Below, piece after piece: positions 10,814-61,620 of a DNA stretch of 64,000 nucleotides. Origin of the DNA: Candidatus Poseidoniales archaeon. GTDB taxonomy: Archaea; Thermoplasmatota; Poseidoniia; Poseidoniales; Poseidoniaceae. Under the pieces are notes generated by a model. The model saw only the letters and a program-made list of their open reading frames with translations, had not been told where the DNA came from and did no database searches. The position numbers and the translations under genes are program-made. The stretch spans positions 44,044 to 108,043 of the forward strand of contig BOYQ01000006.1 of assembly GCA_019651595.1 (NCBI GenBank). Reading direction: 5' to 3'. Each line of letters opens with the position of its first letter. The first letter of the stretch is position 1.

Positions 10814-12706
10814 TCAGGACGGAATGGGCTGCTGCTCCCACCAAGGCGGCGCGAGGAACCAGCGGTCGTCGTTGTCTGGCCGGTCGATCAGCGGTAAACT
10901 CAGCGTGGAGGAAGCGTCGAAATTGACGTTCATACCGACCGCAGCGCAGGGGCTCGGCAGGTAGTCCTCGCCCGATTCGGTGAGCACCACTTCGATCACG
11001 GCCCCGGCGTTCAGGTCAACGTCCATGGGGTTGAATTCCATCAGCATCGTGTAGGCAGAGAACGGTGCTGCTGGGTTGGCGTCGTAGCCCCCGTCTCGGT
11101 AGCGAACGTCCATGGTCGCGTGGCCAACTCGAAGCCCGTCTGCGTACATGGTGGCGAAGATTTGACCCCCGTTACACGCCAGCGTGTTCACCGAGAGGTG
11201 AAGGGTGGGCATGCCCGAAATGTGCGTGTCTTGCTCGAGCGCGGGCAGGGTGAACGAGCGTTGGTTTTGCGAGTTGACCGTACCGCCCGTGCCCTCCGCA
11301 CCGTCAAGCGGGACGGACCACCATTCCATGTCGGCGGGCGGCCAGGTTTCCTCCACGTGCCATTTCCCGTCGTGGGTTTGCATTTGCACCATCGGCTCGG
11401 GCTCTTCCCCGATGTCCTTGAGGTAGTAGTTGAACCAGCCGTAGAGTTCCACGGCCCAGTCCATTCGGCTCATGTTGGGATAGGCCTCGGCACCGTAGCC
11501 GCTGCCCATTTCGCTGTGGCGGTCCGGTTGGTCGGGGTAGTTGTGCGCCCACTGGCCGGCGATGGCCCGAGCGTTGATGCCGGCGTCCCGCATCAATTGG
11601 TAGGTGGGGAAGGCGTGGTAGGGGTCAACGTTCCAGTCTTGCATCCCCCACACAAGGTAGACGCTGCCCTTGTAGTTCGCCAGCACGTCCGGAAGGTGGC
11701 GACGCTCGTCCCAATAGTCGTTCCATTCGGCACCACCGAATTCGGCGCCCGCCCAGGTGGTCAGGGGGTTGAGCGGACCGATGAGGTCGTCGGTGCACAT
11801 CCGCATGTCGTCGGTGCCAGCATCGGTGGTGGCGCCTTCGTAGAGCGCATCGTACAGCATGGCTCTTGCTTCAGAGGAACCGTTTCTATAGAACATTTCT
11901 TGGACGCCGATCGAGCCTGAAATCGGGACGATGGTCTTGAGGTAGGGCGAGGGTTGCTGCGCAGCTTCCCAGTTGGTGGTGCCGGCGTAGGACTTCCCCA
12001 TCAGTCCGACGTTGCCGTTGGACCATTCTTGCTCACCCAACCAGTCAACGACAGCCTGAATGCCGGTTTGCTCTCCGAGGCCCTTGACGTCCTGGCAGTG
12101 GGTGGACTGTCCCGTGCCGAAGGTCGAAGCCTGAGCGAGGGCGTAGCCGTGAGGGACGAAGGTGTCGTAGACCCACTTCCCCACGCCACCGTCGGGGACG
12201 GTGTTTGGAGCGGAATCGTCGCCGGCCACGCCTTCCCCACCGAAGTCGTAGTAGGGATGGATGGTCATGATGACGGGGATTTTCGTGCCGTCGGGCACGT
12301 CCGGCAACCACAACGCAACGTGCATCAAGGCGGGTCCGGGGAACCCAGCGTCCTGCTCGCTGGCGGGCAGGTCCACCTCAACAAAGTGTTCCTCGTAGGG
12401 CAGGGCCTGGTAGGTGCCGTTGACGGGAAGCTGAGCCCGGAGGGTGTCCATGGGCAGGTCCATCAGATGGCGTTCGTCCAGCGGTGTGTTCCACCATTCG
12501 ACCGACGACGGTCCGGCTTCGCTGGCGAGGTTGGCGGCAGGAGACGTGATCACCATGGCCAACATCAGGAAGGTGAAAGCAAAGGCCACGGTGGCGGCAG
12601 CGGAGAAGTTCAACTGGCGCTGTGTGTTGTTTTCCGAGACCTTGAGTTCCACCTCGATGGGCGTGGAGTCCTCGGCCATGTTGCTGGGACGCTGCTCCCC
12701 CATCAA
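10814..12706 (-). CDS. membrane-anchored X-Pro dipeptidyl-peptidase / CocE-NonD family serine hydrolase (S15)
   Basis: N-terminal TM anchor. Nucleophile elbow LMGKSYAGT. 630 aa, uninterrupted. Confidence 0.85.
   Translation of the reverse strand: MMGEQRPSNMAEDSTPIEVELKVSENNTQRQLNFSAAATVAFAFTFLMLAMVITSPAANLASEAGPSSVEWWNTPLDERHLMDLPMDTLRAQLPVNGTYQALPYEEHFVEVDLPASEQDAGFPGPALMHVALWLPDVPDGTKIPVIMTIHPYYDFGGEGVAGDDSAPNTVPDGGVGKWVYDTFVPHGYALAQASTFGTGQSTHCQDVKGLGEQTGIQAVVDWLGEQEWSNGNVGLMGKSYAGTTNWEAAQQPSPYLKTIVPISGSIGVQEMFYRNGSSEARAMLYDALYEGATTDAGTDDMRMCTDDLIGPLNPLTTWAGAEFGGAEWNDYWDERRHLPDVLANYKGSVYLVWGMQDWNVDPYHAFPTYQLMRDAGINARAIAGQWAHNYPDQPDRHSEMGSGYGAEAYPNMSRMDWAVELYGWFNYYLKDIGEEPEPMVQMQTHDGKWHVEETWPPADMEWWSVPLDGAEGTGGTVNSQNQRSFTLPALEQDTHISGMPTLHLSVNTLACNGGQIFATMYADGLRVGHATMDVRYRDGGYDANPAAPFSAYTMLMEFNPMDVDLNAGAVIEVVLTESGEDYLPSPCAAVGMNVNFDASSTLSLPLIDRPDNDDRWFLAPPWWEQQPIPS
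11884..11893. repeat. palindrome TTCTATAGAA (copy 1, inside S15 peptidase CDS)
   Basis: Exact 10-mer. Read on the coding strand as ATG TTC TAT AGA AAC (MFYRN). Confidence 0.9.
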
Positions 12707-12718
12707 GAGGATGACGCT

Positions 12719-13030
12719 TTACTCGCTTGCTTTGCGGGCTTGGATGAAGGAGCGAACGCACAAGGCCGTGTAGGCCGAGCCGGTCAAGAACAACATCAGC
12801 ATGGAGCCGCTGGCGTAGTCGATTCCGTCGCCCATGACCATGAAAAAGCGGGTGCCCAGAAGGGCGCTGAGCAGACCGAGGACGACGGCCACGTGCATCC
12901 AGAGTTTTCGTTGCTCGGGGTTGCTTTTGGCAAGAACACCGCTGACCACCAGCCCTGCACCGGGCACGCACGGTATGAAACGTGTCAGGGAATCGGTGGT
13001 CGAGAGCAAGCCAACAGCGATGCCCCACAC
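12719..13030 (-). CDS. small hypothetical membrane protein; 5' end may be lost in the low-quality block
   Basis: 103-aa ORF with three hydrophobic segments, 13 nt upstream of the S15 peptidase gene. Confidence 0.4.
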   Translation of the reverse strand: MWGIAVGLLSTTDSLTRFIPCVPGAGLVVSGVLAKSNPEQRKLWMHVAVVLGLLSALLGTRFFMVMGDGIDYASGSMLMLFLTGSAYTALCVRSFIQARKASE

Positions 13031-13039
13031 AACGAAAAC

Positions 13040-13505
13040 CCGTAGCCGAAAACGGAGGGTTTGGGGATGAAATCAGATGGCTTGTCCATGAATTGCGGGG
13101 GGTTCCTTTTGGGGGATGTTTCCTTGGGCGACGGCCGGCCCCTTTTTTTTTCAAAAAAAGGGGGGGAAGGGCCAAAAACCCCCATAGGAGCCGCCACCGG
13201 GGTTCCCGGAAAAAGCTCTTCTTGGGGGCCCCCTGGGTGTAAGTGGGGCAAGGAAGAGCCCCGCTTTTTTTGGGAAGTTTTGGGGCTTCCCGACCCCGGG
13301 TTTTAATTTGGGCCGACCCGCTCCCGGAAACGGGGTTAAAACCCCCGAGGAAAAAATTTAAGGAAACGCCGAAAAAAATTTTGAGGAAAACTTCCCTTAA
13401 ACCGTTGGGTTTACCTTTGGGAAAGGGAGGAAATTATATAAATTTTAGCTTGGGGGGCCCTACCCCGGAAAAAATGATTGCCCCACGTTTAATCGGGGCT
13501 CTACG
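13040..13505. other. low-quality sequence block (over-called homopolymers)
   Basis: Nearly every base is run-extended (cctttttttttt caaaaaaa ggggggg aagggcc...). 13383-13402 gaggaaaacttcccttaaac collapses to GAG AAC TTC CTT AAA = ENFLK, a cyclophilin N-terminal signature. Confidence 0.75.
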
Positions 13506-13511
13506 ACAGCG

Positions 13512-14207
13512 TGTTTTTTCCCTCGTGTCATCAACGATTTTGTGACCCAATCGGGCGACCCGACGTGCAAGACCATCGGCGTCTACCCCAGCACCAGCCC
13601 CACCTGTGGCAGCGGGGGAACGGGCGAAACCATCCCGCTCGAGCACAACGAGAACCTGTCCCACGTGGACGGCGCCATCGGGATGGCGCGCAGTGCCGAC
13701 CCCGATTCCGCAGATTCCCAATGGTACATCGCTGAAACCGAAGCGCACGGCTTGGACCCCGAAAATCGGGACGATGAGGGCTACGCCACCTTCGGCATCG
13801 TACGCCACGGCATGACCCACATTCGCGCCATTGCCGACGTGCCCACCAGCGACGAACCCACGGGCACCGCCCTTGACAATCCGTTCGCGTCCGCTGGAAG
13901 GCCGCTGCTTGAAGTTCGCATCGTTTCCATGGACATGATCGGCGTGGCCGACCCGGACGGAACGATTCGAAACCCCGTGGTGAAGGCCCAAAGCGACGGG
14001 TCGTTTCTTGAAGACGCCGTGCTGATCGTCGGCGTACCGCTGGCGGTCGTCCTGGTCGGTGTCGGCATCACGCTGGCGGTGTACGGCCGGACCGCTCCCG
14101 GCAGCAAAACCGCGTCCGAAGTCGATGACGGCGAACCCGTTCTCGAGGCAGAAGCGCTCATCGTGGCCGAACTTGTCAACGAGGATTCAGCGACGGACGA
14201 AGGCTGA
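13512..14207 (+). CDS. cyclophilin-type peptidyl-prolyl isomerase with C-terminal TM anchor (5' part lies in the low-quality block)
   Basis: FPRVINDFVTQSGDPT...GSGGTGETIPLE...GAIGMARSADPDSADSQWYI. A hydrophobic helix AVLIVGVPLAVVLVGVGITLAVYG and an acidic tail follow. Confidence 0.8.
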   Translation, partial: CFFPRVINDFVTQSGDPTCKTIGVYPSTSPTCGSGGTGETIPLEHNENLSHVDGAIGMARSADPDSADSQWYIAETEAHGLDPENRDDEGYATFGIVRHGMTHIRAIADVPTSDEPTGTALDNPFASAGRPLLEVRIVSMDMIGVADPDGTIRNPVVKAQSDGSFLEDAVLIVGVPLAVVLVGVGITLAVYGRTAPGSKTASEVDDGEPVLEAEALIVAELVNEDSATDEG

Positions 14208-15319: not shown

Positions 15320-16350
15320 GTCCATGCCGAGGGGGAGAGGGTAACCCTTTCTCCCCGACCTTAGGGGGGAAAACTTCGCACCTTTGGGGAACCCGGTTGT
15401 AAAGCACGCCTTTTTCGATGCGTTGGGGCCATTTCCCCCCCCTTCGTCCCCGCGTGGCGCCAGGGGGATGCAGCCTGCATTGGTGGGGGGACTTTGGACA
15501 TACGACCACAGCGATGACGCGCCTACCGTCAGGACTGGGGGAAGGGAAACTTTGTTTTGCCCCGATCCCCGACCTCCTCCATCGAACTGGAGTTGACGGG
15601 CCGTTCGGGAATTCGAGCGGACTCCTGGGTTTTGGGGGCTTGGCCGACCATGGACACCCTGAGGACACCAGGTTTTGAGCCAACGACGGCCCTAGCGGCC
15701 CTTACCGCCACAGCCCAAAGGGGGCGGGCTCACCAACCGTTGGCGAAACTCAAAACGGGGTCCACAAGCCCCCAAGCCCCCCGGAGTCGGGCTTTGGCCC
15801 GCCCAAACCTCTCCCCCCAAAACATCACCTTTCACCAGTGGCGGTCAACCGACGTTTTCCCGGTTTCAACCAACGTCAGGCTGAAAGGGCGCCGGGGCAC
15901 AACGGTTTTAGCCACCCCTTTGCCCAAGCCCCGGCTTTGGTTTACCTGCTGGCCAGCAATTTCAACTTGGGCTCGGAGAAACTCGACTCGACAACCTATG
16001 GGGCTGCTCACGATGGGGGTAGATCAACCCAGCTTGACCTGACCACCAAACCCGGGGACCCGGGGGTTTTTTTCATCAACCCTCGTCTACGAGGTGCTGG
16101 GCACCACGTCAACGGACCTTGTGCCCGTTTCGGGCCACCCGCCCCTGGCGGCGGGTGGTCAATGAACCATTTTTTGGCGCCCAACCGACGGTGATAAGGT
16201 CCAGCGGGTGGATTTGGGCCCCCGGGGGACCCAAATTCCCCACGGTCTTCACGGGGGGTTTCCCCTCGATTCAACCTCGTCATCGATTTGAGCAAGAAAA
16301 GGGCCACCATTTATTTCGCTGCCGGAGTGTACTACCCCGACACCCCCAAC
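15320..16350. other. low-quality sequence block (over-called homopolymers)
   Basis: Same stutter texture (gggggggaaaacttcgc, ccccccccttcg, gggggtttttttc...). No ORF here is interpretable. Confidence 0.7.
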
Positions 16351-22356: not shown

Positions 22357-22590
22357 TCAGAGTTCTGCCCCGATGAGGGTCTTCGTGTCCTTGATGCCCG
22401 GAAGTTGCCGAATTTCTTCCACGATGCACTGCGTGAGGGCGAACTCCTCGTCCGCCTGCACTCGCGCGATGAGGTCGTATTCCCCGAACAGCATCCAGTG
22501 GTCGGTCACCAAACTGACACCGGAAAGGGCTTCTCGAACGGCGGCTTCCTGCCCCGGAAGCGTGGTCATCAGGACAAATCCAATCGCCAT
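22357..22590 (-). CDS. stand-alone Lrp/AsnC ligand-binding (RAM) domain protein, no HTH
   Basis: 77 aa. The pattern ...VTDHWMLFGEYDLIARVQA...IRQLPGIKDTKTLI is typical of a RAM domain. Confidence 0.7.
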   Translation of the reverse strand: MAIGFVLMTTLPGQEAAVREALSGVSLVTDHWMLFGEYDLIARVQADEEFALTQCIVEEIRQLPGIKDTKTLIGAEL

Positions 22591-22594: not shown

Positions 22595-22831
22595 TCAGGC
22601 CTCCACGGCGATCAGCGTCTGGGTTTCCTTCACGCCATCGATGCGGCGGAAGGATTCCATCAAGAGGTGAGAGAGTTCTTTCGAAGTGGGTGAGCTGATG
22701 CGGACCAGCAAGTCAAATTCCCCGTACAGGGCGTGCACTTCGGCCACACCCTCGTGGTCGCTGAGGGTGAGGTAAACCTCCCGCTCATGCGTTGGTTCGG
22801 TCTTGAACAGCACAAACGCTTCGGGCATCAA
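22595..22831 (-). CDS. stand-alone Lrp/AsnC ligand-binding (RAM) domain protein, no HTH
   Basis: 78 aa. ...VAEVHALYGEFDLLVRISS...FRRIDGVKETQTLI. It lies 4 nt upstream of its paralogue. Confidence 0.7.
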   Translation of the reverse strand: MMPEAFVLFKTEPTHEREVYLTLSDHEGVAEVHALYGEFDLLVRISSPTSKELSHLLMESFRRIDGVKETQTLIAVEA

Positions 22832-31281: not shown

Positions 31282-31286
31282 GAGCA

Positions 31287-35241: not shown

Positions 35242-36626
35242 TCGTGTTCAATTCGTGCCGGTGAATGAGGTAGCGCCAGAGGTCGTCCTTGTCCCCGTTC
35301 CCTTCCACACGCTGAATCACCACGTTGGCTTCTTTCGCAAATCGGGTTGAGAGGGCGCCTTCGATGATTCCGTCGTCCATCTCCCACATCGGGAGGGCGT
35401 CCGGGTCGTCAACCGGTGGGTGGTTGAGGCCGACAACGACGTGGAATTGCGGGTCGACGTCGTACTGCAGCAAGCCCAGTCCAGCGTGTTCCCACCAGTC
35501 CATCATTTCGTCGAGGAATTCGATATCGTTTTCTATAGAACGCAGGGAGAAGGCGATTTCTTGCCCCACACGGTTGCCGATTTGACGCAGCATACGACTG
35601 ATGTCAATGCCCAGCACCTTGAGGTTGGACAGCTTTCCTTCCGTGAGGCGGCTGCGGGCTTCGTTCACCTCGTGGCCAGCGGCGAAAAAACGCCTCAGGG
35701 TCAAACGGTGTGTCTTCCTCCGGAAGCTGACCGTCAAAGCCGAGGGCGACAGAGACGTTCTTCAGGAATGAACCTTCACCGATGGTCAATCGAAGCGGGT
35801 CGTTGATCTGGTTTTCCGTGAAACGAGCACGGGCGGTCGCCAGCGGAACGGCGCCTTCCCAAATGGCATCGATCAGGTGAAGATGCGCTTGGGAGAACGG
35901 TCCTGACTCGATGATGAGGGCGGCGTCTTCTTTTCCTCGGCCAACCGGGTTGTCCTCGATGTTGAGGTACTGGATGACTTCGGCTTGGTCTTGGACAAAG
36001 CCCAGTGAATCCAATTCGTCCGAGTGTCGAACATCGATGCTCTTCTCCAACTGGTCAAAGAAGCGCAAGGTGCGGCCGTCCAAGTGGGTGATGATTTGGA
36101 CCACGACGCCCCGCACGGCTGCGGTGTTGACCGCCTCCAGCGCATCGGGGCTTCGGCAAAGATGGAGAATACCAAACTGACCCAAGAGTAAGATGAGCCG
36201 TTCCTCGGCATCGTTGGCCATCTTTTGCAGGCGGTTGTAAATGTGGCTGCGCTCCTTGAGCACGGCGAACCTTGGGTCATCGATGTCGCGACGTTGTTTC
36301 TCGTACGAAGCGTCGGTTTCCGTGATGCCTTTGGACAGCTCTTCAAACCCCTCCACCAAGCGGTCAAGTTGTTGTTTTCGAGACTGAATGATGTGCTCCA
36401 TGGCCTCGTTGATGCGGAGGCTGGAAAACAGCATCGGCCGGTCGGCCGTGGCGGTGACGATGCCCATCTCTTGGAGCCGTGAGAGGCTGTTGTAGGCGTC
36501 AAGACGGGTGGTGTTCAGTTCCTTGGCGAGTTCGGAAGCCTTCATTTTCGGTCGGGAACCAAGGATCATGATGGAACGAACCTCTCGTTCGTTCAGCCCG
36601 GCCTCCAGGAGTAACTCGTCCCACAT
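35225..36626 (-). CDS. TrmB-family transcriptional regulator with V4R-like C-terminal domain; one frame change at the T6/A6 run 35685-35690
   Basis: N-terminal TrmB wHTH (MKASELAKELNTTRLDAYNSLSRLQEMGIV). Fragments 35604-36626 and 35225-35737 join as ...DTPFDPEAFF|AAGHEVNEARS. The tail resembles a 4-vinyl-reductase (V4R) fold. Confidence 0.7.
35531..35540. repeat. palindrome TTCTATAGAA (copy 2, inside TrmB-like CDS)
   Basis: Exact 10-mer. Read as CGT TCT ATA GAA AAC (RSIEN). Confidence 0.9.
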
Positions 36627-37714: not shown

Positions 37715-37810
37715 GTTACAAAATCTACTGAGTTTGTATATAAACACTCGTCTTTTTCTTACAGGGACTCAAACTGCGTTTGATATACTGGGCTGATGAA
37801 ATATTGAGTG
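37715..37810. promoter_or_regulatory. bidirectional AT-rich promoter region (ribA operon <-> nudix-phr operon)
   Basis: tatataaa at 37737-37744 (TTTATATA on the minus strand) lies 23 nt from the ribA ATG. gatatact at 37782-37789 lies 22 nt from ATG 37811. No SD motif is present, consistent with leaderless archaeal mRNAs. Confidence 0.5.
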
Positions 37811-41317: not shown

Positions 41318-43834
41318 ATGGCCGGTCGAGTTGCCATCCTGCTCGTCCTCGCCCTCGCGCTGATTCATCTGCCGTTGGTGAGCGCCGACGATGCCCCCGC
41401 CAGCGCCAACGGGCTGACGGACGGTGTGTCGTCAAGCGGGTACGTTTGCGACCCTGACGGGTGCTCTCCAAACGACAAGCGCGACTACTGGAAAATTCAA
41501 GGGAAAATGGGCGATATCGTCCAAGTCACCTTTTCGGGCAGCATGAGCAACGCTGCGTGGTGGTGCCCCGGCGACGGTTGGGAAGGGACCTTCACCATGG
41601 GTTCGGTTTCCCAGAACGTCGATGACGGTTCCCCAACCGCCACCCTGTCCACGACGCTTTCCACGGCGGGTGAGATTCTGATCAAGGTTGAAGGCAAAAA
41701 TTCGTGGTGTAACGACGGTTTTGATTACACCCTCACGCCCTCGATTGACAAAACCAACCGCGACTCTGATGAGGACGGCTTCGTTGACACCGAAGACGAC
41801 TGCACCCTCCTGGTCGGTGCGTCCACCAACGACCGAAAAGGATGCACCGACTCCGACGGCGACGGTTGGTCGGACCCCGACAGCGGATGGGGCGTACAAA
41901 ACGGCGCTGATGCTTTTGCAAGTGAATCCTCACAATGGTTGGACTCGGACAACGACGGCTACGGGGACAACCTCGACGGCTACCAGGGCGACCACTGTCA
42001 ATTCAGCCGAGGCTACTCCACGTCCGACCGGTACGGATGCGTGGATTCCGATGGCGACTCTTATTCCGACCCGGACCCGGGAGGACTGAACGGCTACGAA
42101 GCGTGGTTCGCCCACCCTGTCGGCAAAGCCGATGCCTTTGCTTACGACGCCTCTCAGTGGAACGACACCGACGAGGACGGCTACGGCGACAACTGGGACG
42201 ACCCTTCGCTGAACGCCACGCGGCAGGTCTGGGACATCGGTCAGTTTGTCGACAACGCCACACAGCCGGATGCTTGCCCGTTCATCCGAGGAGGTTCCTC
42301 CTCTGACCGGTTTGGATGCATTGACAGCGACTTGGACACGTACTCCGACGGGGATGAAAACTGGACCATCGACAACGGTTCGGACGCCTTCCCGCTCGAA
42401 CCAACGCAATGGCTCGATTCGGACCGGGACGGATGGGGTGACAATCAAACGCTGGGAGCTCAGCGCATCGACGATTTCCCCTTCAACCCGACCCAGTGGC
42501 GAGACACGGACCGAGACGGGTGGGGCGACAACCAAACCTACGGCGCCACCCAGGTCGACGATTTCCCCTTTGTACCCTCCCAATACAGGGACACGGACGG
42601 TGACGGGTACGGTGACAATCTTACCGGATTCGAGGGCGATGTTTGCATGCAATCCACGCCCGAGGAAGTGGACTCAGGCTGGATCAGTCGCTACGACCGT
42701 CTGGGGTGCCGGGACGTCGACAAGGACGGGTTTTCGGACCCCACCGACCTGTGGTCGGCTCACCCGGCTGGGTTTGCCGATGCTTTCCCTGACGATCCTT
42801 CCCAGTGGCACGACACGGACGACGACGGTTACGGCGACAACCTCGAGTATTTCGACGGACAAACGTGGCGGTCCTCCTACCGTCCCGACGGCTGCCGCAC
42901 CACGCAGGGCCAATCGACGTTCGACCGCTGGGGTTGCCCCGACGGGGACGGAGATGGTTGGTCCGACCCGACCTCCATTTGGCTGGCCAGCCCGGGCGGT
43001 TCGGGGGATGCATGGCCTGAGGACCCCACCCAGTGGCACGACACCGACGGTGATGGCCGTGGCGATAATCCACGAGGGAACACAGCCGACGTTTGTCCTT
43101 CTATAGCAGGAACCTCGGTTGGACCTTCCTTCGGTGGCGATCGCTGGGGGTGCAAGGACACCGACGGTGACGGCTGGTCCGACCTCGGTGATGCCTTCAT
43201 TCACGAACCCACGCAATGGCGAGATTCCGATGGAGACGGTTATGGCGACCGCATCGACGGTCATCAGGGCGATGCGTGCCCCGAGACCCGCGGGACCTCC
43301 CTCCTCGACCGATTGGGATGCCGGGACACCGACGGCGATGGTTGGTCCGACCCCAGCGAATCGTGGCCGGCTCATCCGTTTGGCACCGGGGATGCCTTCC
43401 CCACCGAAGCGCTGCAGTGGAAGGACACCGACCAAGACGGCTTTGGGGACCTCCCGCTGGGGGCGTTCCGGGATGACTGCCCCACCCAAGCTGGGTCCTC
43501 CGAGCGCGACCTCCAAGGTTGTCCGGACGACAACGGGGACGGTTGGTCAAACCAATACGGTGAATTTGCCGCTGCCATTGCTATCATGGGCGAGGACCCT
43601 GCGGCTTCCTGGCTCACGTACGCCGTGATGGGCGCTGGTTTCCTGCTGGGGGCATTGGGAGCGTTGCTGGTCAAAGGCACTCGTCGCCGCCGAGAACTCC
43701 TCGAACAACTCATTCACGACAAGGAAACGGAACTGATGAATTCGCCCGGCATTGGCGAACCCGTTCCGACCTTGATCCCGCTCGACCAACTGCCGCCCTT
43801 GCCCGCATCCGAAGGAGGTGAGCAAGATGGGTGA
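41318..43834 (+). CDS. secreted thrombospondin type-3-like Ca-binding repeat protein with C-terminal TM anchor and PPLP-containing tail
   Basis: Signal peptide and a PPC-like N-module. About 8 bipartite units GC.D.DGDGWSDP...ADAFP.DP.QW.D.D.DGYGDN. A TM helix follows, then KGTRRRR... and a tail ending ...DQLPPLPASEGGEQDG. Confidence 0.85.
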   Translation: MAGRVAILLVLALALIHLPLVSADDAPASANGLTDGVSSSGYVCDPDGCSPNDKRDYWKIQGKMGDIVQVTFSGSMSNAAWWCPGDGWEGTFTMGSVSQNVDDGSPTATLSTTLSTAGEILIKVEGKNSWCNDGFDYTLTPSIDKTNRDSDEDGFVDTEDDCTLLVGASTNDRKGCTDSDGDGWSDPDSGWGVQNGADAFASESSQWLDSDNDGYGDNLDGYQGDHCQFSRGYSTSDRYGCVDSDGDSYSDPDPGGLNGYEAWFAHPVGKADAFAYDASQWNDTDEDGYGDNWDDPSLNATRQVWDIGQFVDNATQPDACPFIRGGSSSDRFGCIDSDLDTYSDGDENWTIDNGSDAFPLEPTQWLDSDRDGWGDNQTLGAQRIDDFPFNPTQWRDTDRDGWGDNQTYGATQVDDFPFVPSQYRDTDGDGYGDNLTGFEGDVCMQSTPEEVDSGWISRYDRLGCRDVDKDGFSDPTDLWSAHPAGFADAFPDDPSQWHDTDDDGYGDNLEYFDGQTWRSSYRPDGCRTTQGQSTFDRWGCPDGDGDGWSDPTSIWLASPGGSGDAWPEDPTQWHDTDGDGRGDNPRGNTADVCPSIAGTSVGPSFGGDRWGCKDTDGDGWSDLGDAFIHEPTQWRDSDGDGYGDRIDGHQGDACPETRGTSLLDRLGCRDTDGDGWSDPSESWPAHPFGTGDAFPTEALQWKDTDQDGFGDLPLGAFRDDCPTQAGSSERDLQGCPDDNGDGWSNQYGEFAAAIAIMGEDPAASWLTYAVMGAGFLLGALGALLVKGTRRRRELLEQLIHDKETELMNSPGIGEPVPTLIPLDQLPPLPASEGGEQDG
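41830..43560 (+). repeat. coding tandem repeats (TSP3-like bipartite units, about 60 aa each)
   Basis: Recurrent gacggcgacgg / cagtgg...gacaccgac DNA strings encode DxDxDGxxDxxD loops. Confidence 0.7.
43099..43108. repeat. near-copy TTCTATAGCA (9/10) inside the TSP3 CDS
   Basis: Read as CCT TCT ATA GCA (PSIA). Confidence 0.6.
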
Positions 43835-45118: not shown

Positions 45119-46017
45119 ATGAACGCTGTTGAAGCCATCCTCATCGGTGTTGTCAGCCTTGTTGCGGCGGTTGTCCTTCGTTTGATTTACGTCTGGTACA
45201 CCCGAATACGACCCCTTCAACCCTCGCTTGATTTGGAGTGGGCTGCGGACTGCAAACATTTGACGACCGCCACGGTCAACGGGTCGGCGTTGACCTTTCA
45301 CATGGTTCGAAATTTCACATGGCGCACGACCAAAGACCGGGACGAGGATTGGGAGGACGAAATCAGCGTGGATGCCGAGGACCTGAAAGACGTCTGGTTC
45401 ATCGTTGACCATTTCCACTCCATCAAGGGCTTGGCTCACACCTACCTCACGTTCGAATTTGGTTGTGGAACGTGCCTCTCGTTTTCGTTTGAATCGCGCC
45501 GAGAAAAGGGTGAACGCTACCATCCCTGGGACGGCCTCTGGCGCGCCTATGAGCTCTACCTCTTGGTTGGAACAGAGCGGGACGTGACGGGACTCAGAAC
45601 CCACGGAAGGGGCAACAAGGACTACATGTTTCGTGCCAACACCCCGCCCGAAAAAAACAGGGAACTTCTCTTCGCCATGGTCAAGAAACTCAACGACCTT
45701 GCCGTGAACCCCGAGTGGTACCATTCCCTTTGACGACATGCAACACGTCCATCGTCAACATTGTCAACGAAGTGACGCCGGGAAGGATTCCGTTTTTGTG
45801 GCGCAATTTCCTCCCGGGCTACACCCCAAAGGCAGCGTTTAATCTGAAACTCATCGAAGATTGGGGCGGCCTTGAGGAGACCCTTCGCAAGGCGAGGATC
45901 GACGAGAAAGCCCAAGCCTGGGACGGCGTTGAAGACTATTCGGCTATGCTTCGTTCGTTCCTGCCGCCTTCCAAGGCAGGTGGAGGGGATGAATCATCAT
46001 CAGGCGCCCGTGCTTGA
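45119..46017 (+). CDS. DUF4105 (Lnb N-terminal-like) domain membrane protein, one frame change near 45730
   Basis: ATG lies immediately after the upstream stop. N-terminal TM helix. ...PEWYHSL|(L)TTCNTSIVNIVNEVTPGRIPFLWRNFLPGYTP matches the YH.L..NC.T...N..P signature of DUF4105 as I recall it. Confidence 0.6.
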
Positions 46018-46609
46018 ACGAGAGTTGAACCTTGGGTCCAACGCTGGTGTTGTGAAGTCCACGTGATCCCATGGGCAGCGTCTCACCGCTGAGGCTGAAG
46101 GCTGCGCCTTCCAGCACCACCTCTTCTGCAACAGGCAGCGCAAACAGCGAGAATTCATCGCCAAGCTCAATTTCTATAGAATAAGTGACTCCGGGTGAAA
46201 AGAACCGGTACACGTGGGTGTGGCTGATGCACGTGATCCTCAGTGAAGAGGCGCCGCACGTGAGAAGGTTGGCCCATTCATGTTGCGGGTCCCCGCCGGT
46301 CGCTCCGACCACCCAGCACGCCGTGAACCCCTGCTCGTGAACCCAATCAATCGCCTTGCTCAAGTCATTGGCGTTTTGCTGAGGGCGCTCGACCACGGCA
46401 CCGCCTCTCGCCACGTGTTCGTCCAGCTGGTCCTGTTCGACGCTGTCCATGTCGCCCACCACGGCATCGGGCCTGAGACCATGCTCCAGGCACGTTGTCA
46501 GCGCTCCATCGCAAGCGATGATGGCAGCTGCTTCATCCGCCAACGCCAGCACCACCGCATCGGGGGCTCGCTCACCGCAGGCAAAGATGAGCGCCGTTTT
46601 GCCTGCCAC
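45944..46609 (-). CDS. thiamine pyrophosphokinase
   Basis: ACDGAL...RPDAVVGDMDSV, NDLSKAIDW, VVGATGGDPQHEWANL. Confidence 0.8.
   Translation of the reverse strand: MAGKTALIFACGERAPDAVVLALADEAAAIIACDGALTTCLEHGLRPDAVVGDMDSVEQDQLDEHVARGGAVVERPQQNANDLSKAIDWVHEQGFTACWVVGATGGDPQHEWANLLTCGASSLRITCISHTHVYRFFSPGVTYSIEIELGDEFSLFALPVAEEVVLEGAAFSLSGETLPMGSRGLHNTSVGPKVQLSFKHGRLMMIHPLHLPWKAAGTNEA
46172..46181. repeat. palindrome TTCTATAGAA (copy 3, inside thiamine pyrophosphokinase CDS)
   Basis: Exact 10-mer. Read as TAT TCT ATA GAA ATT (YSIEI). Confidence 0.9.
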
Positions 46610-46731
46610 GGTGGGAGGTGGGGCCCCTCCCTTCTGAACTCAACGGTGGTGGGAAACGGCGGAAATGACCCCCTACGGGGGTCAAGCGAAAGTCAACAAT
46701 GATTTTCAAGGTCGCCGGGTGTGCTTAACCC

Positions 46732-49700: not shown

Positions 49701-52700
49701 GTGGATTCACGACGGCAATGAACTCTCGAAGCACGAAGTGGCAAACCACACCGACCTCAACAGCGAGCTGGGGCTTGTTACGCTCGCTAACGGTTCCATC
49801 CTGTTGGCGGCGCTAACGTCAGACGGTGCCCTAACCGTTTACGAACAGTGGCCCGCCAGCACCGGTTGGGTTGAACACACCCTGCCTCAACCCAGCGGTG
49901 TCGCCAACGAGTACCGACTCGACCTCAAGGGCGGTGATTCACCCTTGCTGGCCGTTCGCGGCAACGCCATCTCCTCTATTTACGGCCTGAACGAAAGCGG
50001 GGCGTGGGTCTCCCTTGCTGAGCGACCGGCTGCCGCCGTTGATGGCGCATGGGACGTGTTGCACGCCGGCGATCATCTGGTCTTGATGACCAGCGACCCC
50101 GTCTCGCAACACCTCACGTTCAACAGTCTTGAACTCAACACCACCACGGGTGAGCCCAACCAGTGGATGTCGACAACGTTTGGTGATGTTCGAACGAATC
50201 ACCCCGTTCACGCCAAACTCGATTCGAACGGGACCGTCCACATGGCTTACTGGGACGAGGTCAACGACGACGTCATCATGCTCCGCCTCTACGGCGATGC
50301 AGACCGCGACCTCGTCTTCGACCTCATCGACGCCATGCCGAGCGTCGGTGACCAGTGGATGAACAGCGACGGCGACAACTACGGTGACAACCCACTCGGA
50401 CCGTTGCCCGATGCTTGCCCCACGGATGCGGGCCCGTCGTCGTTCATCTTCCAAGGCTGCGATGATTACGACACCGACGGCTACAGGGACACCATTGACG
50501 GATGTGACGACCAGGGCGGCACGTCGTGGATCGACCGATTCGGGTGCGAGGACCTCGACCAGGACGGCTGGTCCGACAACGGTGCTTCCTACTTCGACGG
50601 TGACGTCTTCAAGAGCAACTGGAAACAGGCTCTGGACACCGACGGCGACGGCTTCGGCGACAATCACGGCGTGGACTGCTGTGCGGTTCCCGTTTACGAC
50701 CCCAACGCCGGTCCGGGCGATTTGTTCCCCTACCTCGCCTCACAATACAGCGACTATGACGGTGATGGCTACGGCGACAACGACACCGACACCGTTCACG
50801 GTGATTACTGCCCGTGGGACTTTGGGACGTCCTTCCGAGACCGAAATGGATGCCTTGACACCGACGGTGATGGCGCCAGCGACCCGTCGGGCGAGGGGAC
50901 GATTTTCGAATGGAACGCCACCGAGCACGGCGCCGATGTGTGGCCCTTTGACCCCACGCAGTGGCAAGACACCGACGGCGACGGCTTTGGCGACAATCAA
51001 TCCGAGAACGCCACCAACCCGGACCGCTTCCCCATGCGAATCGCCGCCGCCAACGACACCGATGACGACGGCTACGCCGACAATTGGACCGAGTTTTACA
51101 ACGGCACCAACGCCCAAGGCATCTTCATTGACGCCTGCCCCACCGAATGGGGCAACTCCACTCGACGGAACCTCACCGTCTACGCCTACGGCTGCCCCGA
51201 TGCCGACGGGGACGGCTACACCGACGCGTACGTGTTTGACGTCGATCCTGACACGGGCCTGCGCATCAACGAACTCGGCGACGCCTTCCCGGACGAGCGA
51301 ACCCAGTCCAAGGACCGGGACGGCGATGGGTTTGGCGACAATCCAGTGGGCGCCAACGGCGATCAGTGCCCTGAGGTCCCCGGCGTGCTGAACGGCACCG
51401 ACGGCGTGGGTTGTCGGGTTATCGATCTCAACGATGATGACGGCGACGGCCTGATCAACGAACTGGATTTGATTTGCCCCAACACGCCCTTGGGTGAGCA
51501 GGTCAACGCCGACGGTTGTTCCCAATCCGAACTCGACGACGACGAGGACGGGGTCAACAACAACCTTGACCTCTGCCCCGACACGCCCGCAGGGCTTGCC
51601 GTTGACGCTGAAGGTTGCAGCGAAGCGCAGCGAACATCGGACACCGACGGTGACGGATTGAACGACCCTGAGGACACGTGCCCGGACACCGAACCCGACG
51701 CTGAGGTCGATGAGAACGGCTGTTCTCAAGCGCAACGCGACACCGACGGCGACGGCCTGTCCGACCTTGACGATGCGTGCGACGACACCCCTCCTGGGTT
51801 CCCCATTCTCGCCAACGGTTGCACCGATGAAAGCGCCCTTGACACCGATCTTGACGGTGACGGGTACAGTGGCGCTTACGCCTACGACATCGACCCCGTC
51901 ACGGGGCTCCATGTCAATCAAACGGGGGACGCCTTCCCCAGCGATGCGACGCAGTGGTTTGACCAGGACGGCGACGGCTACGGTGACAACCCCTCGCCGG
52001 CCAACAACGCCGACGATTGCCCCGCTGAAACCGGCACGTCCTACATCGATTTCCTGGGTTGTTATGACGACGGCGACGGTTATCGCGACGAAAACGAGCC
52101 TGAAGCCCTCCGTGGTGATCCCACCCAGTGGCGAGATTCAGATTTCGACGGGTTTGGTGACAACTGGGGCAATCCGTCATGGAACGCCACGCGGGACCCC
52201 TCGTGGCCCGGCCAGTTCGTGGAGGGTGCAACCAACGCCGATTTCTGTCCGAAGACCACGCCCGGCTTGAGCGTCGACGAGGAAGGGTGCCACATCTCCC
52301 AACGAGACAGCGACGCCGACGGCGTGATGGACGATGCTGACAACTGCCCCAACGAACCGAAGGGCGTTGACGGATACGATGACGGTTGTCCATACGTACC
52401 GCTGTCCGGCGACGGCGAGGAAGGCCTGTTCGGCGTGGACGCCGGCATCATCATGTTGGCTCTTGGCGGCCTCGGTGGCTTGGCCATCGTCAGCCTGCTG
52501 GTCGTGCGACTTCTGCGGAGGGAGGACGACGACGAGGACGACGAGTACGATGATTTCTACGACGACGAGGATGAGGAGGAAAGTTTCCTTGACCGACTCG
52601 ACCGGACGACCTCCGTTCAGCCTCAACGCTCCCGTTCCGTGCCTGAACGTCGCTCCAACCCAGGTCCTTCCAGCGGTCCAAGTGGCCCTGCCCCAAGTCG

Positions 52701-53064
52701 AACCGCTCCGGTGCGCAAGCGAGGTCCCCCCGGTGGTCCTGCCAAAACCGGCGGCCCCCCGGGTCGCAGCCCGAGCAAGAAACCCGCGCCCAAAGCGGCA
52801 CCTGAACCTCAAAAGGCGGGCAAGAAGAAGGTGGTCGCCGACGAGGACCCTGGAAAGAAAGTCCGCAAGGCCAAGATCAACGTTGATTTGTCCATCTTTG
52901 AGGACTGGCAAACCGACGACCGCGAAGCCGCCGTGGAATGGGTGGTCGGTGCGTTTGCTGACGGCGACGAAGAGCGAACGGTGTTGATGCAACTTCAGGA
53001 AACGGGATGGACGGCGAAGCAATCCCGTGCGATTTGCGACCTGGCAAAGAACCATCGAGGTTGA
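46732..53064 (+). CDS. 2110-aa surface protein: beta-propeller-like region, seven FG-GAP (integrin-alpha-like) blades, second propeller-like region, long TSP3-like array, TM helix, 180-aa cytoplasmic tail
   Basis: Uninterrupted ORF with signal/anchor at the N-terminus. FG-GAP blades are GDLNDDGFDDFVV, GDFNNDGVLDLAV, CDVNNDGFDELIV, GDLNGDGFDEHIV, GDINEDGYGDVYI and GDVDGDGLSDLFY, plus one degenerate blade. Many DxDxDGxxDxxD loops. TM helix GIIMLALGGLGGLAIVSLLVV followed by RLLRRE. Confidence 0.9.
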   Translation: MATGDFQNNGMKSIGLVVLFLLSLLSPLLMTPTSSPSLDEADAPGFTGPFTQASGYGHDFAGTTLDVDGLVQVSVREESMLDLWSTEVLNLSFGEHHGTPDMKLTRHDKAHFCWSTQEGTVRTAVHRPTGLWTTTLVDSVATATATTLVDCAVGITANERPRVLYADGDDLKMGRYAEQSQTYYDGPRWHTRTIMEDVAPTHLALDITPDGLEWGLMRTDAGALHQVNFSGAYWTEYLLDAGPVGERFELKVDDDGVAHVLYSRTATNEVVLLRIDGMERDQRILLQDNDLTDVLGMDLDANNIEQVATATQDGSSFSINLIRSLAGQDTGRVNPVPSTAIEDADDETEGLMLMGDLNDDGFDDFVVSTPEADLVSMTDNGRVAVYYGSSSGLSELPDMIYAGASDGAQFGFGMDLGDFNNDGVLDLAVGSPGWAPADDPTTRHGMVHVYLGNASGVSASPWSNLTGVANESLGSAVAALHHANSGDGLAATARNHTVQVSPTQVDDGKVNLYTGNESGLHPMRNLTQTENGGLFGRSLEACDVNNDGFDELIVGNTGTYDAPATYSSVEYFFGSTSGYNGTADHTVASITQGRLFGLNIACVGDLNGDGFDEHIVSEPFNSTQSFGAGTLWLFEGTDGALPGDADWQYFPPPNSRIGEAMAGAGDINEDGYGDVYISSRMGNAAGRIEIFLGSPNGISTDRQLLAEGNTSERLGFRMAGDGDVDGDGLSDLFYSMRSGERGTSYGLTYLMLSEQDWESISFERQGTITDVKLGTAGRGETSIVYTHADALRLHVSKLEHMNDGTPGGQWVDQTVVRLNTTHLGVAFAVRSSGQPMVLVENTSAMMLSSTSSMTALQQAVATTGTMGQWLGSTITHDNKQVLAYTSGLGNQIFAATQSATGWSSELVRTSAVLASPIEVLIDQGNNPVLLYRHNATDQLEMAIGGASWVLEALGDEGDARSLQHPAVMLANQSIAVGLVASNGTGTNLAVWIHDGNELSKHEVANHTDLNSELGLVTLANGSILLAALTSDGALTVYEQWPASTGWVEHTLPQPSGVANEYRLDLKGGDSPLLAVRGNAISSIYGLNESGAWVSLAERPAAAVDGAWDVLHAGDHLVLMTSDPVSQHLTFNSLELNTTTGEPNQWMSTTFGDVRTNHPVHAKLDSNGTVHMAYWDEVNDDVIMLRLYGDADRDLVFDLIDAMPSVGDQWMNSDGDNYGDNPLGPLPDACPTDAGPSSFIFQGCDDYDTDGYRDTIDGCDDQGGTSWIDRFGCEDLDQDGWSDNGASYFDGDVFKSNWKQALDTDGDGFGDNHGVDCCAVPVYDPNAGPGDLFPYLASQYSDYDGDGYGDNDTDTVHGDYCPWDFGTSFRDRNGCLDTDGDGASDPSGEGTIFEWNATEHGADVWPFDPTQWQDTDGDGFGDNQSENATNPDRFPMRIAAANDTDDDGYADNWTEFYNGTNAQGIFIDACPTEWGNSTRRNLTVYAYGCPDADGDGYTDAYVFDVDPDTGLRINELGDAFPDERTQSKDRDGDGFGDNPVGANGDQCPEVPGVLNGTDGVGCRVIDLNDDDGDGLINELDLICPNTPLGEQVNADGCSQSELDDDEDGVNNNLDLCPDTPAGLAVDAEGCSEAQRTSDTDGDGLNDPEDTCPDTEPDAEVDENGCSQAQRDTDGDGLSDLDDACDDTPPGFPILANGCTDESALDTDLDGDGYSGAYAYDIDPVTGLHVNQTGDAFPSDATQWFDQDGDGYGDNPSPANNADDCPAETGTSYIDFLGCYDDGDGYRDENEPEALRGDPTQWRDSDFDGFGDNWGNPSWNATRDPSWPGQFVEGATNADFCPKTTPGLSVDEEGCHISQRDSDADGVMDDADNCPNEPKGVDGYDDGCPYVPLSGDGEEGLFGVDAGIIMLALGGLGGLAIVSLLVVRLLRREDDDEDDEYDDFYDDEDEEESFLDRLDRTTSVQPQRSRSVPERRSNPGPSSGPSGPAPSRTAPVRKRGPPGGPAKTGGPPGRSPSKKPAPKAAPEPQKAGKKKVVADEDPGKKVRKAKINVDLSIFEDWQTDDREAAVEWVVGAFADGDEERTVLMQLQETGWTAKQSRAICDLAKNHRG
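50330..52430 (+). repeat. coding tandem repeats (TSP3-like Ca-binding loops)
   Basis: Dozens of D-x-D-x-D-G-x-x-D-x-x-D motifs, with recurring QW.D.D.DG.GDN and CP.T units. Confidence 0.7.
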
Positions 53065-59407: not shown

Positions 59408-59415
59408 GACATCAC

Positions 59416-60948
59416 CTACTGATCGCCGTACTTGGCGATGATGTCAGCGTGGAAGTTGTCCAGCAGGGTGTCCTCAAACAATTCGGTTTGACGACGCATC
59501 TTGGTCGAACGAATGTGAAGAACGGCCATCAAGATGAACACACCGATGACCAGAGGAATGAAGACTTCAAGCTTGTACTGGTGCATGAATTTCACAATGC
59601 CCTCTGCGGTGTAGGCCCAGGTGACCGAAGCGATGGAGCCGCCGATGAGGGTGGCAAGAAGCACACGCATGAACTGCATGCGGGACAGAAGGCCGAGCAT
59701 GGCACCGACCAACACGCCGGAGGCCATGAACGGAATCCAAACGAAGAAGATCAGGCCCCAGAATCCCCACTTGTTGATCATTTCACGCTTCTCGTTGGCC
59801 ATGTATTCCACGGTTGAGAGCGTGTCGCCGAGGAATTTTGTCTGCAAAACGCGGCCGCCAAGGCCGTCCTGCTTGGCAACGGCCACGATGCGCTCGTCGT
59901 CGGTTTGCGAACGGCGTTCAACACGGCCGGCACCGGAGCGGTCGGCCAGTGTTGACACTTCGTTCCGCGTCTTGACGACCAGTTCCTGTGCACCGAGGAG
60001 GTCTTCGTTTCGCTCGTGGATGAAACGGTAGAGTTCGTCCTTGATCTGCGTCGAGGTTTTGTTGAATCGCAACCACGCAAAGCGCTGCGTCGGCCGGAAA
60101 AGAACGGAAACGAAGACCACACGGTCGTCGCTGGTGACGACGGCGCCTGTCATTTCAACGTCGGACCGTCGGGTGAAAAACAAGTCAAGGCTGTCCCGAA
60201 CATCGTCTTCGATGCGGGAAAGCGAGTGAAGTTCGGAGAAGAAACTGGAGTAGTCCTGTTGCTCAACGCTGAGGTCGGCTTCCTCTCCGCGGGCACCGAT
60301 GCCAACGCCCGAGTCAAAGTCAATGTTCGCACCGTCGCCGATCGCTCTCACGTTGAGTTGAACCGGTTTGTAGACACGGAAGATGGCGAACTCCTCCAGC
60401 AGGTTGCGCAGGAGTTCAGCGCGAACTTCTGCACCGTCAGACAGCGTGTTTTCGGTGTTTTTGTAGGCGACCATGATGTCGATGGAGAGCTCCCGAACTT
60501 CGGTTTTGAACAGGTCGGGGTCCACGTCGATGGAGAGCTGTTCGCTCACCTTGTAGACGGTGTCCTCGACCAGTCGGTTGATGTGGGCGCGGGACAGAAT
60601 GTCGTCCGCTTCTTGGTGGTAGATTTTGTACATCACGGGGTAGATGATGAGGAGCGTGATGAGGGAGAGCGAGAGCGAGATGAACGCCATCCACCAAGCA
60701 GGAATGCCTGCGGCACCACCGGTGAGCATGGCCGTTTCACGTCCGCCACCCAATTCTGCTCCCATCAAGATGTAGCCCCAATCGCCGAGGTCTTGCACCG
60801 TCCAGCACGATCGAGGACCAGCATCTTCGATGCGAACATCGGAGTGCTCGTCATCGTTCACGAACGGCAGGAAGGCCAAGGCTTCCTGCGTGATTTCATG
60901 CTCAAATTCAACGCTCTTCGACATGGTGTCCATGACCACGGTCGACAA
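59416..60948 (-). CDS. membrane protein: unknown about 300-aa domain fused to a C-terminal 'small multidrug export'-like (COG2426/PF06695-like) 4-TM module
   Basis: The C-terminal WGFWGLIFFVWIPFMASGVLVGAMLGLL... resembles Sm_multidrug_ex. Lower GC: about 51% over 59420-59619 by hand count. Confidence 0.55.
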   Translation of the reverse strand: MSTVVMDTMSKSVEFEHEITQEALAFLPFVNDDEHSDVRIEDAGPRSCWTVQDLGDWGYILMGAELGGGRETAMLTGGAAGIPAWWMAFISLSLSLITLLIIYPVMYKIYHQEADDILSRAHINRLVEDTVYKVSEQLSIDVDPDLFKTEVRELSIDIMVAYKNTENTLSDGAEVRAELLRNLLEEFAIFRVYKPVQLNVRAIGDGANIDFDSGVGIGARGEEADLSVEQQDYSSFFSELHSLSRIEDDVRDSLDLFFTRRSDVEMTGAVVTSDDRVVFVSVLFRPTQRFAWLRFNKTSTQIKDELYRFIHERNEDLLGAQELVVKTRNEVSTLADRSGAGRVERRSQTDDERIVAVAKQDGLGGRVLQTKFLGDTLSTVEYMANEKREMINKWGFWGLIFFVWIPFMASGVLVGAMLGLLSRMQFMRVLLATLIGGSIASVTWAYTAEGIVKFMHQYKLEVFIPLVIGVFILMAVLHIRSTKMRRQTELFEDTLLDNFHADIIAKYGDQ

Positions 60949-61537
60949 GGTGGTCGCGCTCTTCGTACACGGTCACCTTGAACTCAAGTTCGTAGTGGCC
61001 TTCCGGCAGTTCAGAATACGGGGCCTTGAAGAACGCTCGCCCGTTACTCCGGTCGGCTTTGTTGATGGTGCGTACCGTTTCGTTCGAACCGTAGGCTTCC
61101 TCCACCACGCCTTTCGTTTCTTCGTTGACGTGGGAGAAGAACGTGTAGTTGAGGTAGGCTTCACCGTTGGGCAGGTTGTGCCCCGCGATGGAAAACAACT
61201 CTTGGTCGGGGTCGGGGAAAATGTTGAGCCAGGGCTCATCGGTGATCTCGGTGCATTCATCGCCGATGTCGAGGAAGGTGGTGGAGGCGGTGTGGTCGAG
61301 CGTGGTGGAGTTGCCCAGCATGCCCGCTGACATGGAAAACAGCAGCAGGGCGAACAGGATGCCGTAAGCAACGCCGCCCAAGAGGACGAAATCCTCAATT
61401 TTTGAGAGGAACATGCGTCCACCGCCTTGGCGACGTTGCCGAATTTCCTGCAGTTCCTTGCTCTCACGGTCCTTGGCTTTGGCGTGCTCGTCATGCGAGT
61501 CGTTGGCGTCGGATGCGGAGCCCTCGTCCTTCGCCAT
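60908..61537 (-). CDS. hypothetical N-terminally anchored protein
   Basis: Charged N-terminus, one TM helix (FVLLGGVAYGILFALLLFSM) and an extracytoplasmic domain of about 130 aa. Its 3' end overlaps the downstream ORF by about 40 nt. Confidence 0.5.
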   Translation of the reverse strand: MAKDEGSASDANDSHDEHAKAKDRESKELQEIRQRRQGGGRMFLSKIEDFVLLGGVAYGILFALLLFSMSAGMLGNSTTLDHTASTTFLDIGDECTEITDEPWLNIFPDPDQELFSIAGHNLPNGEAYLNYTFFSHVNEETKGVVEEAYGSNETVRTINKADRSNGRAFFKAPYSELPEGHYELEFKVTVYEERDHLVDRGHGHHVEER

Positions 61538-61610
61538 GAAGTTCCATACCCGCTCCAGTTCAAGAATCCTTTTCCGAAGTAGATTGACGACTCACGAGCC
61601 ATGCTACCCA

Positions 61611-61620
61611 TTCTATAGAA
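61611..61620. repeat. palindrome TTCTATAGAA (copy 4, intergenic; 12-nt palindrome ATTCTATAGAAT)
   Basis: Exact 10-mer, 43 nt beyond the tRNA-Phe 3' end and about 75 nt upstream of the 61537 start. Confidence 0.9.

Follow-up and report, generated by a model that had tools for sequence, protein, structure and literature searches.

A conserved ten-base palindrome apparently selected at the DNA level in archaea of the Poseidoniaceae

Why should one AT-rich palindrome of ten bases recur, spelled in rare codons, in unrelated genes of a GC-rich archaeal genome? The question is raised by a 64-kb stretch of DNA from a Poseidonia species (Marine Group IIa archaea; Poseidoniaceae; about 60% GC), called the window throughout, which contains four exact copies of TTCTATAGAA together with one copy, TTCTATAGCA, that matches it at nine of the ten positions (sites 1 to 5; Table 1). 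A first-pass annotation of this DNA had proposed that selection acts at the DNA level and had named three possible causes: an iterated palindrome similar to HIP1 of cyanobacteria, a site for a dimeric DNA-binding or nucleoid protein, and a modification- or restriction-related site. The comparison with related genomes described here supports selection on the DNA itself, and not on the proteins, and it shows the motif to be real: a conserved palindromic element of Marine Group IIa archaea that had not been described before. As judged from sequence, the favoured reading, to which a probability of roughly 0.5 is given, is that TTCTATAGAA, with its strict core TCTATAGA, would be a stand-alone element under purifying nucleotide selection in Poseidoniaceae, most likely a docking site for a dimer.

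The copies lie far above chance, as had been claimed, and this holds under each of the null models applied. None of 100 shuffles preserving dinucleotides contained an exact copy, and Markov models of orders 1 to 4 predict 0.0007-0.02 copies per 64 kb. When synonymous codons were shuffled so that every protein and the overall codon usage were preserved (3000 shuffles), a mean of 0.003 exact coding copies was obtained against the three observed, and no shuffle reached three; for the 7-mer TCTATAG four coding copies were observed against a mean of 0.28 (0 of 3000). All five CTATAG hexamers of the window are part of the motif, and so are five of its 14 TATA tetramers, a word that is strongly avoided (about 100 expected) and nearly confined to promoter-like sequences and the motif. 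The coding copies are read in two codon phases, TTC TAT AGA in the S15 peptidase gene and T TCT ATA GAx or GCx in the other three genes, just as first described. The flank tTTCTATAGAAc shared by sites 1 and 2 and the extension of site 5 to a 12-nt palindrome (61610-61621), close to tRNA-Phe, had also been noticed correctly, although neither is kept in relatives.

A search of species-representative genomes, with a neighbouring gene as query, provided 31 syntenic loci from Poseidonia and Poseidoniaceae. The fetched loci come from independent assemblies. For most of them the best DNA identity to the window is about 70-90%, and therefore none of them is the window's own genome. Site 1 was followed in 80 orthologous metagenome loci and site 5 in the window and seven relatives (eight lineages). 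The unique territory covered amounts to about 80 kb, seen in many species, and all motif counts and densities refer to it: five copies per 64 kb in the window, or about one per 13-16 kb, and one to three per 20-kb locus in the relatives. A set of 140 composition-matched 10-bp palindromes, that is, the motif and 139 controls, was then counted in 937 kb of high-GC relatives, where the motif occurs 54 times whereas 138 of the controls occur 0-5 times. The exceptional control, TCAAATTTGA, is found 21 times, at two orthologous positions (about 3871 in loci L001-L027, equivalent to about 33735 in the window, and about 12190 in the S15 loci). At these positions it encodes two protein motifs, FKFD and VKFD, and only some half of the orthologues carry it intact, so it was rejected as a second palindrome conserved at the DNA level. 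With the other matched controls rare and this exception driven by protein, the motif is not a general property of AT-rich palindromes. It recurs in more than 100 independent assemblies, which excludes an assembly or cloning artefact, a possibility that had been left standing at first.

Table 1. Location in the window of the five motif copies, of the genes around them and of promoter-like blocks
Feature	Position	Strand	Sequence	Context
Site 1	11884..11893		TTCTATAGAA, exact	in S15 peptidase gene; reads TTC TAT AGA A (F-Y-R-N)
S15 (X-Pro dipeptidyl) peptidase gene	10814-12706	minus		host of site 1
Site 2	35531..35540		TTCTATAGAA, exact	in C-terminal part of TrmB-like regulator gene; reads CGT TCT ATA GAA (R-S-I-E)
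TrmB-like regulator gene, open reading frames as read in the window	35604-36626 and 35225-35737	minus		different frames; overlap 35604-35737
Site 3	43099..43108		TTCTATAGCA, 9/10	in 838-aa open reading frame; reads CCT TCT ATA GCA (P-S-I-A)
838-aa open reading frame	41318-43834	plus		host of site 3; no Pfam match
Site 4	46172..46181		TTCTATAGAA, exact	in thiamine pyrophosphokinase gene; reads taT TCT ATA GAA (Y-S-I-E)
Thiamine pyrophosphokinase gene	45944-46609	minus		host of site 4
FG-GAP/TSP3 protein gene	46732-53064			contains no site 3
Site 5	61611..61620		TTCTATAGAA, exact	intergenic, between tRNA-Phe and membrane-protein gene
tRNA-Phe	61663-61738	minus		site 5 lies 43 nt downstream
Small acidic membrane-protein gene	60908-61537	minus		ATG at 61537, with site 5 at 74-83 nt before it
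Promoter-like block	37737-37744		TTTATATA	ribA TATA box
Promoter-like block	37780-37787			
Promoter-like block	46700-46710			
Promoter-like block	61553-61575		GGAAAAGGATTCTTGAACTGGAG	upstream of the membrane-protein gene
Promoter-like block	61765-61780			

Four of the five sites lie deep in genes, some 430-1780 nt from the start of the open reading frame (ORF) and at no consistent position, and the genes that host the motif in the window or in relatives (a peptidase, a regulator, a protein without known family, a thiamine kinase and an EF-hand-like protein) have no functional theme in common. The placement of site 2 in a TrmB-like gene is sound for the relatives, in which a single intact ORF of 466 amino acids contains it (for example L013, 5358-6758). 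In the window as read, the site falls downstream of the TrmB ORF, because a frameshift, either real or an assembly error, splits the gene into two overlapping frames. The 9/10 copy, on the other hand, had been assigned to the TSP3 protein, whereas it is carried by the ORF of 838 amino acids; its tenth match is missing because a conserved alanine blocks it. An ORF at 60973-61701 that overlaps site 5 was discarded as an off-frame artefact, the real gene being that of the membrane protein.

At orthologous positions the sites recur in place across independent assemblies with a DNA divergence of 10-25% from the window. Sites 2 and 4 are found at the same positions across the 31 genome loci, and in both cases the core TCTATAGA is fixed while neighbouring third codon positions vary and the outer positions of the motif change freely. 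At site 2, 22 of 30 genomes have the exact 10-mer and 26 have the core, surrounded by flanks in which most third codon positions vary in five to more than ten genomes. Where the core has been lost (four genomes), one to four of the four codons have moved to common ones; L005 reads CGC TCC ATC GAC and L022 likewise shows a joint relaxation. Since several positions relax together on loss, the ten bases behave as one unit. At site 4 all 27 genomes keep CTATAG, and 25 of them the whole core, despite the highly variable protein around it.

These observations were placed on a common scale with tblastn alignments of every gene in the syntenic block, in which each column with a conserved amino acid was examined. 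The columns compared share one phylogeny, and the statistics are counts over columns rather than over independent substitution events. ATA is a rare codon, about 4-7% of those for Ile, and only three of 164 conserved Ile columns use it in at least 97% of the genomes: site 4 (26 of 26), site 2 (28 of 29) and the TATA box of the ribA promoter, which enters the list as a codon of an over-extended ORF. The next highest Ile column reaches 19%. For Ser, TCT is used in 25 of 25 genomes at site 4 and in 26 of 30 at site 2, the next highest column being at 61%. An unbiased scan of 3534 columns returned the motif columns as the top real outliers; two rare GTA codons of universal conservation that also emerged were rejected, as the ORFs they belong to had been taken from the wrong strand. 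The negative control, a Ser-Ile-Glu position in a Trm5-like gene, is written with ordinary, variable codons.

Site 1 is, on these alignments, the least constrained of the sites. The protein motif QEMFYRNG, inside which it lies, is invariant in all 80 loci, and the 10-mer is exact in 27 of them, including 20 of the 36 with a GC fraction of at least 0.54, for which the codon usage of the window predicts about 0.4% for TAT plus AGA. Elsewhere it has been lost by synonymous changes (TAC AGA, TAC CGC, TAT CGA). Versions with one mismatch that are a single silent change away from completion (TAC AGA, TAT CGA, TCC ATA) persist in many lineages, and their being left unfinished argues against a general conversion drive and for selection site by site.

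Site 5 is exact in the window, L117, L118, L119 and L123 (five of the eight lineages), has nine of ten matches in L122, lacks the central TA in L120 and is missing from the low-GC relative L121. The spacer cannot be aligned on either side of it, so that the motif stands as an island of identity. L120 reads ATCTAGAA at about 9905, against ATCTATAGAA at 9898 in its close relative L122, and the absence of TA creates the rare word CTAG/TCTAGA; the change may be a sequencing error of this polished but error-prone long-read contig, which has many broken genes. A related word, GTCTATAGCG, is found just past the right end of the window in an NFACT-family gene, where it is kept in four relatives (L117 6216, L118 6221, L119 6853, L123 5953). 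It reads GTC TAT AGC, includes the 7-mer TCTATAG and could be either a weak site or a protein-driven one.

New sites have also been gained. Site 3 exists only in the subclade of the window (window, L001, L006-L010 and L036), where it is invariant as CCT TCT ATA GCR, while all other relatives have Ser, Thr, Asp or Glu followed by Val, mostly in common codons (L027: GAT ATA). Val elsewhere and Ile in the subclade indicate that the site arose newly, by a Val-to-Ile change and two synonymous shifts. In an EF-hand-like gene, L117, L120 and L122 carry a perfect copy, ACT TCT ATA GAA, at a position that reads AGC CTC/CTT GAG in the window and L119 and ACC ATC GAG in L118 and L123. Both gains combine an amino-acid change to the rare codon ATA with shifts to rare codons, four to seven changes in total, and when two unrelated positions converge on the same 10-mer through so many changes, selection for the DNA word as such is indicated. 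Rare codons kept at orthologous positions, an intergenic island and two independent gains all agree with the DNA-level selection that had been proposed.

The same clade shows marked biases in other short words. CTAG is present in the window in three copies (15692, 31219, 62520), where base composition predicts 229 and a Markov model 41, and AGCT, GATC and CGCG fall to 0.34-0.41 of the expected number. Among the relatives, CTAG is depleted 20-50 fold in the high-GC Poseidonia, 5-10 fold in mid-GC lineages and only about 1-2 fold in low-GC ones, which are also without the conserved motif; the high- and mid-GC Poseidoniaceae have it. Marine euryarchaeal genomes are modified at GATC, AGCT and CGCG (PMC8919816), and depletion together with known modification points to an active, sequence-specific system of DNA modification or repair. 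In the literature on methylation in Poseidoniales no motif of the TTCTATAGAA kind was found.

Conserved blocks upstream of tRNA-Phe, the site 5 gene, ribA, a NUDIX gene and the gene of the giant FG-GAP protein suggest how promoters of the lineage are laid out. They would consist of a purine-rich B recognition element (BRE; GGAAGG or GAAAAGG) followed by a TATA-like 8-mer ending 22-26 nt before the start, and the start after such a promoter is probably a leaderless start codon or the 5' end of a tRNA. The TATA-like 8-mers observed are TTTATATA, YTTGATAT, ATTCTTGA and ATTTTCAA, the first being the ribA box, identical in 31 of 31 genomes. The gene downstream of site 5 has its own conserved promoter-like block, about 40 nt downstream of the motif, with the BRE/TATA-like part at -37 to -22 and the centre of the TATA-like element some 26 nt before the ATG. 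This separate block means that the motif is not the TATA box of that gene.

Against this background the alternatives can be weighed. That chance or shared ancestry alone is responsible, with rare codons inherited at conserved protein motifs, might be suggested by site 1, which lies in an invariant protein motif and has been lost in many lineages, and by the 21 copies that TCAAATTTGA reaches for protein-level reasons; but the null models rule out chance, the motif columns are extreme among 3534 that share the same phylogeny, the intergenic island is conserved and independent gains converge on the same 10-mer, and this account is effectively refuted. A function in RNA or translation, either as a site UUCUAUAGAA for an RNA-binding protein or RNase or as a cluster of rare codons (AUA, AGA, UCU, UAU) pausing ribosomes, is very improbable. 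Every coding copy does consist of rare codons, and a palindrome gives the mRNA the same ten bases from either strand; however, a pause site would need no identical palindrome in two reading frames, the non-coding site 5 is equally conserved, and ten bases without conserved flanks are too short for a stable hairpin. A scan of the window with Rfam returned only tRNA-Phe. ATA codons also occur outside the TCT-ATA-G context, and a decoding quirk restricted to that context was discarded, the window having 28 ATA codons in varied contexts. It is also improbable, if less so, that the palindrome has no function at its sites and persists as a by-product similar to HIP1, restored after mutation by a sequence-specific bias of methylation-and-repair or by one of gene conversion. 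The extreme depletion of CTAG, with that of AGCT, GATC and CGCG, speaks for such a bias in this clade, and it could conserve synonymous sites without any function. A drive of this kind would nevertheless be expected to produce thousands of copies instead of about one per 13 kb at stable positions; many lineages have not made the single silent change that would complete a copy, the outer positions are free, and gains of four to seven changes with amino-acid replacements are beyond a last-step repair. As for a restriction target, which the first-pass annotation had also considered, such targets are depleted and not conserved in position, whereas the motif is over-represented and position-conserved.

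The resemblance of the core to a TATA box has to be considered with more care, because TATA is avoided in this genome except in promoter-like sequences and the motif, TCTATAGA agrees with the ribA box TTTATATA at six of eight positions, and a conserved in-frame ATG is found 23-24 nt downstream of sites 1 and 2, the spacing seen at the ribA, NUDIX, gene-B and giant-protein promoters. Internal, possibly bidirectional promoters recognised by TBP and TFB could yield shortened isoforms or antisense RNAs. Nevertheless, no start codon is so placed at sites 3 to 5 or at the lineage-specific ones, no conserved purine-rich BRE is present upstream of the motif on either strand at any site, the site 5 gene has a promoter block of its own, the identifiable promoters of the window use varied TATA-like elements rather than exact 10-bp palindromes, and the Met codons near sites 1 and 2 are fixed in any case by the protein motifs ARAML and DEMMDW. 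Promoter function is for these reasons considered distinctly unlikely. An operator of an ordinary transcription factor, with the TrmB-like regulator as one candidate and the intragenic copies acting as roadblocks or distal sites, would account for the location of site 5 upstream of a conserved promoter-like block, a typical position for archaeal activators, and for a site inside the TrmB-like gene, which carries the best-conserved copy. Operators of the TrmB family have half-sites of the TACT/AGTA type, loosely like TTCT/AGAA, and chromatin immunoprecipitation studies in archaea often find intragenic binding. Still, such a regulon is unlikely: four of the five sites are deep in genes at inconsistent positions, the host genes lack a functional theme, new sites arise within genes as well, and half-site centres only about 5-7 bp apart are a poor fit for a winged-helix dimer.

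Among the three causes named at first, the site of a dimeric DNA-binding or nucleoid protein appears to be the best fit to these sequence comparisons. Two reading frames, a non-coding copy and a perfect palindrome are what a dimeric binder predicts, and accounts at the protein or RNA level do not predict them. In the dimer-docking reading, a symmetric dimer of a lineage-conserved, sequence-specific protein would dock on the palindrome, and the sites would be located wherever the protein encoded tolerates Ser-Ile-Glu/Asp/Ala or Phe-Tyr-Arg; with placement by tolerance, their shares in coding and non-coding DNA would roughly follow the coding density. The bound protein could act on the chromosome, in its organisation, its segregation or another nucleoid-level role, and not through a classical promoter operator, given that the host genes are unrelated, that the sites have no fixed relation to gene starts, that gains are intragenic and that the density is about one per 13-16 kb. 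We infer that a protein binds, what kind of protein it is and what its binding does.

Several points weigh against this interpretation. They include the similarity between the core and the ribA TATA box and the promoter-like geometry at sites 1 and 2, a geometry that does not extend to sites 3, 4 and 5 or to the lineage-specific sites. Besides, the turnover of site 1 is fast; Pfam scans of the larger ORFs of the window, which did not take in every ORF, revealed no gene for ParA/SegA, Orc1, a methyltransferase or a ribbon-helix-helix protein; the sites were sampled in about 80 kb of unique territory and not genome-wide; and canonical SegB and parS motifs are absent, the comparison with SegB resting on the layout and on TCT/AGA half-sites.

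The importance of the motif is related to its hosts, since Marine Group II (Poseidoniales) is among the most abundant archaea of the surface ocean and the palindrome offers a concrete, testable entry point to them. It would also constitute a second layer of information in coding sequences, one that fixes rare codons and even drives amino-acid replacements, and that matters for codon models and for the reading of selection in metagenomic data.

Some further features of the window were recorded. The longest ORFs at 31278-32315 and 44996-45739 lie on the wrong strand, as indicated by stop codons and first-position variation in orthologue alignments, and in their place 31287-32288 (minus) and 45119-45733 (plus) are the probable genes. 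On the minus strand, at 22357-22590 and 22595-22831, two neighbouring genes (77-78 amino acids) look, by sequence, like stand-alone Lrp/AsnC-type ligand-binding (RAM) domains with no DNA-binding domain. The stretches 13040-13560, 15650-16140 and 26480-26960 contain dense short homopolymer runs (for example ccctttttttttcaaaaaaagggggggaagggcc); the first two, which are covered by relatives, align poorly and with many gaps, and all of them look like error-rich, low-quality assembly and not biology. An exact-protein look-up of the thiamine pyrophosphokinase ORF of the window gave no match, its start codon probably being called differently, and two scans of viral contigs found no relatives of the flanking genes. 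When the literature was searched in full text, TTCTATAGAA and TCTATAGA turned up only as primers or in unrelated sequences; one match, an AT-rich Picrophilus plasmid promoter, gave no mechanistic lead.

How does the motif compare with systems already described? It shares with archaeal TATA/BRE promoters its TATA centre and its closeness to the lineage box TTTATATA, but it differs from them in being an exact palindrome, mostly deep in genes and with no conserved BRE. The operator of TrmB-family regulators at sugar-gene promoters (for example TGM, TATCAC-N5-GTGATA) has another sequence, and four of the five sites are in unrelated genes. The analogy with HIP1 (GCGATCGC) that had been drawn at the outset is partly valid. 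Both words are lineage-specific, far above chance, present in unrelated genes and in different frames, and kept at orthologous positions beyond what codon usage predicts. However, HIP1 occurs roughly once per kb or more, while the motif is an AT-rich word in a GC-rich genome with few, stable copies, about one per 13 kb, so the likeness holds for positional conservation and fails for abundance. The sites of ParB (parS), Noc and SlmA are also palindromes bound by dimers, often situated in coding sequence, conserved across species and present in a few to tens of copies per genome. Their sequences are different and the proteins are bacterial, and parS clusters near the replication origin; the 16-bp parS consensus TGTTNCACGTGAAACA has no match in the window with up to three mismatches.

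The system of Sulfolobales known as SegAB provides the comparison within the archaea. Its SegB is a ribbon-helix-helix protein that recognises a 13-bp site, TCTAGA-S-TCTAGA (bioRxiv 10.1101/2025.02.07.637068; NAR 2021, PMC8682754), with one dimer per half-site and 39-49 scattered sites, about 83% of them intragenic in unrelated genes, and those who described it see in it a link between chromosome organisation and segregation and not a control of transcription (bioRxiv 10.1101/2025.02.07.637068; PMC8682754). The motif differs in being a single unit of 8-10 bp with a TATA centre, in place of two TCTAGA units around G or C. TCTAGA itself is absent from the window, and the SegB consensus, with its nearly invariant AGA-S-TCT core, has no match there with fewer than three mismatches and five with three, against a chance mean of 3.6. 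The two systems are alike in their short palindromes of TCT/AGA half-sites (TCT-AT-AGA in the core of the motif), in a dimer unit about the size of TCTATAGA and in scattered, mostly intragenic sites (four of five, plus the lineage-specific ones, in the 80 kb or so examined); by analogy, the link through the half-sites is suggestive only. It is proposed tentatively, with the odds well against it, that TCTATAGA might serve Marine Group II archaea as a box of centromere-like kind or as one that organises the chromosome, derived from the TCTAGA of SegB type but free of CTAG, bound by a dimer of ribbon-helix-helix type and maintained at a set regional density. Such a density would explain both the intragenic gains at the cost of amino-acid changes and the occasional relaxing of old sites. 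If this were the case, the palindrome would give a first handle, readable from metagenomes, on chromosome segregation and organisation in abundant uncultured archaea of the plankton.

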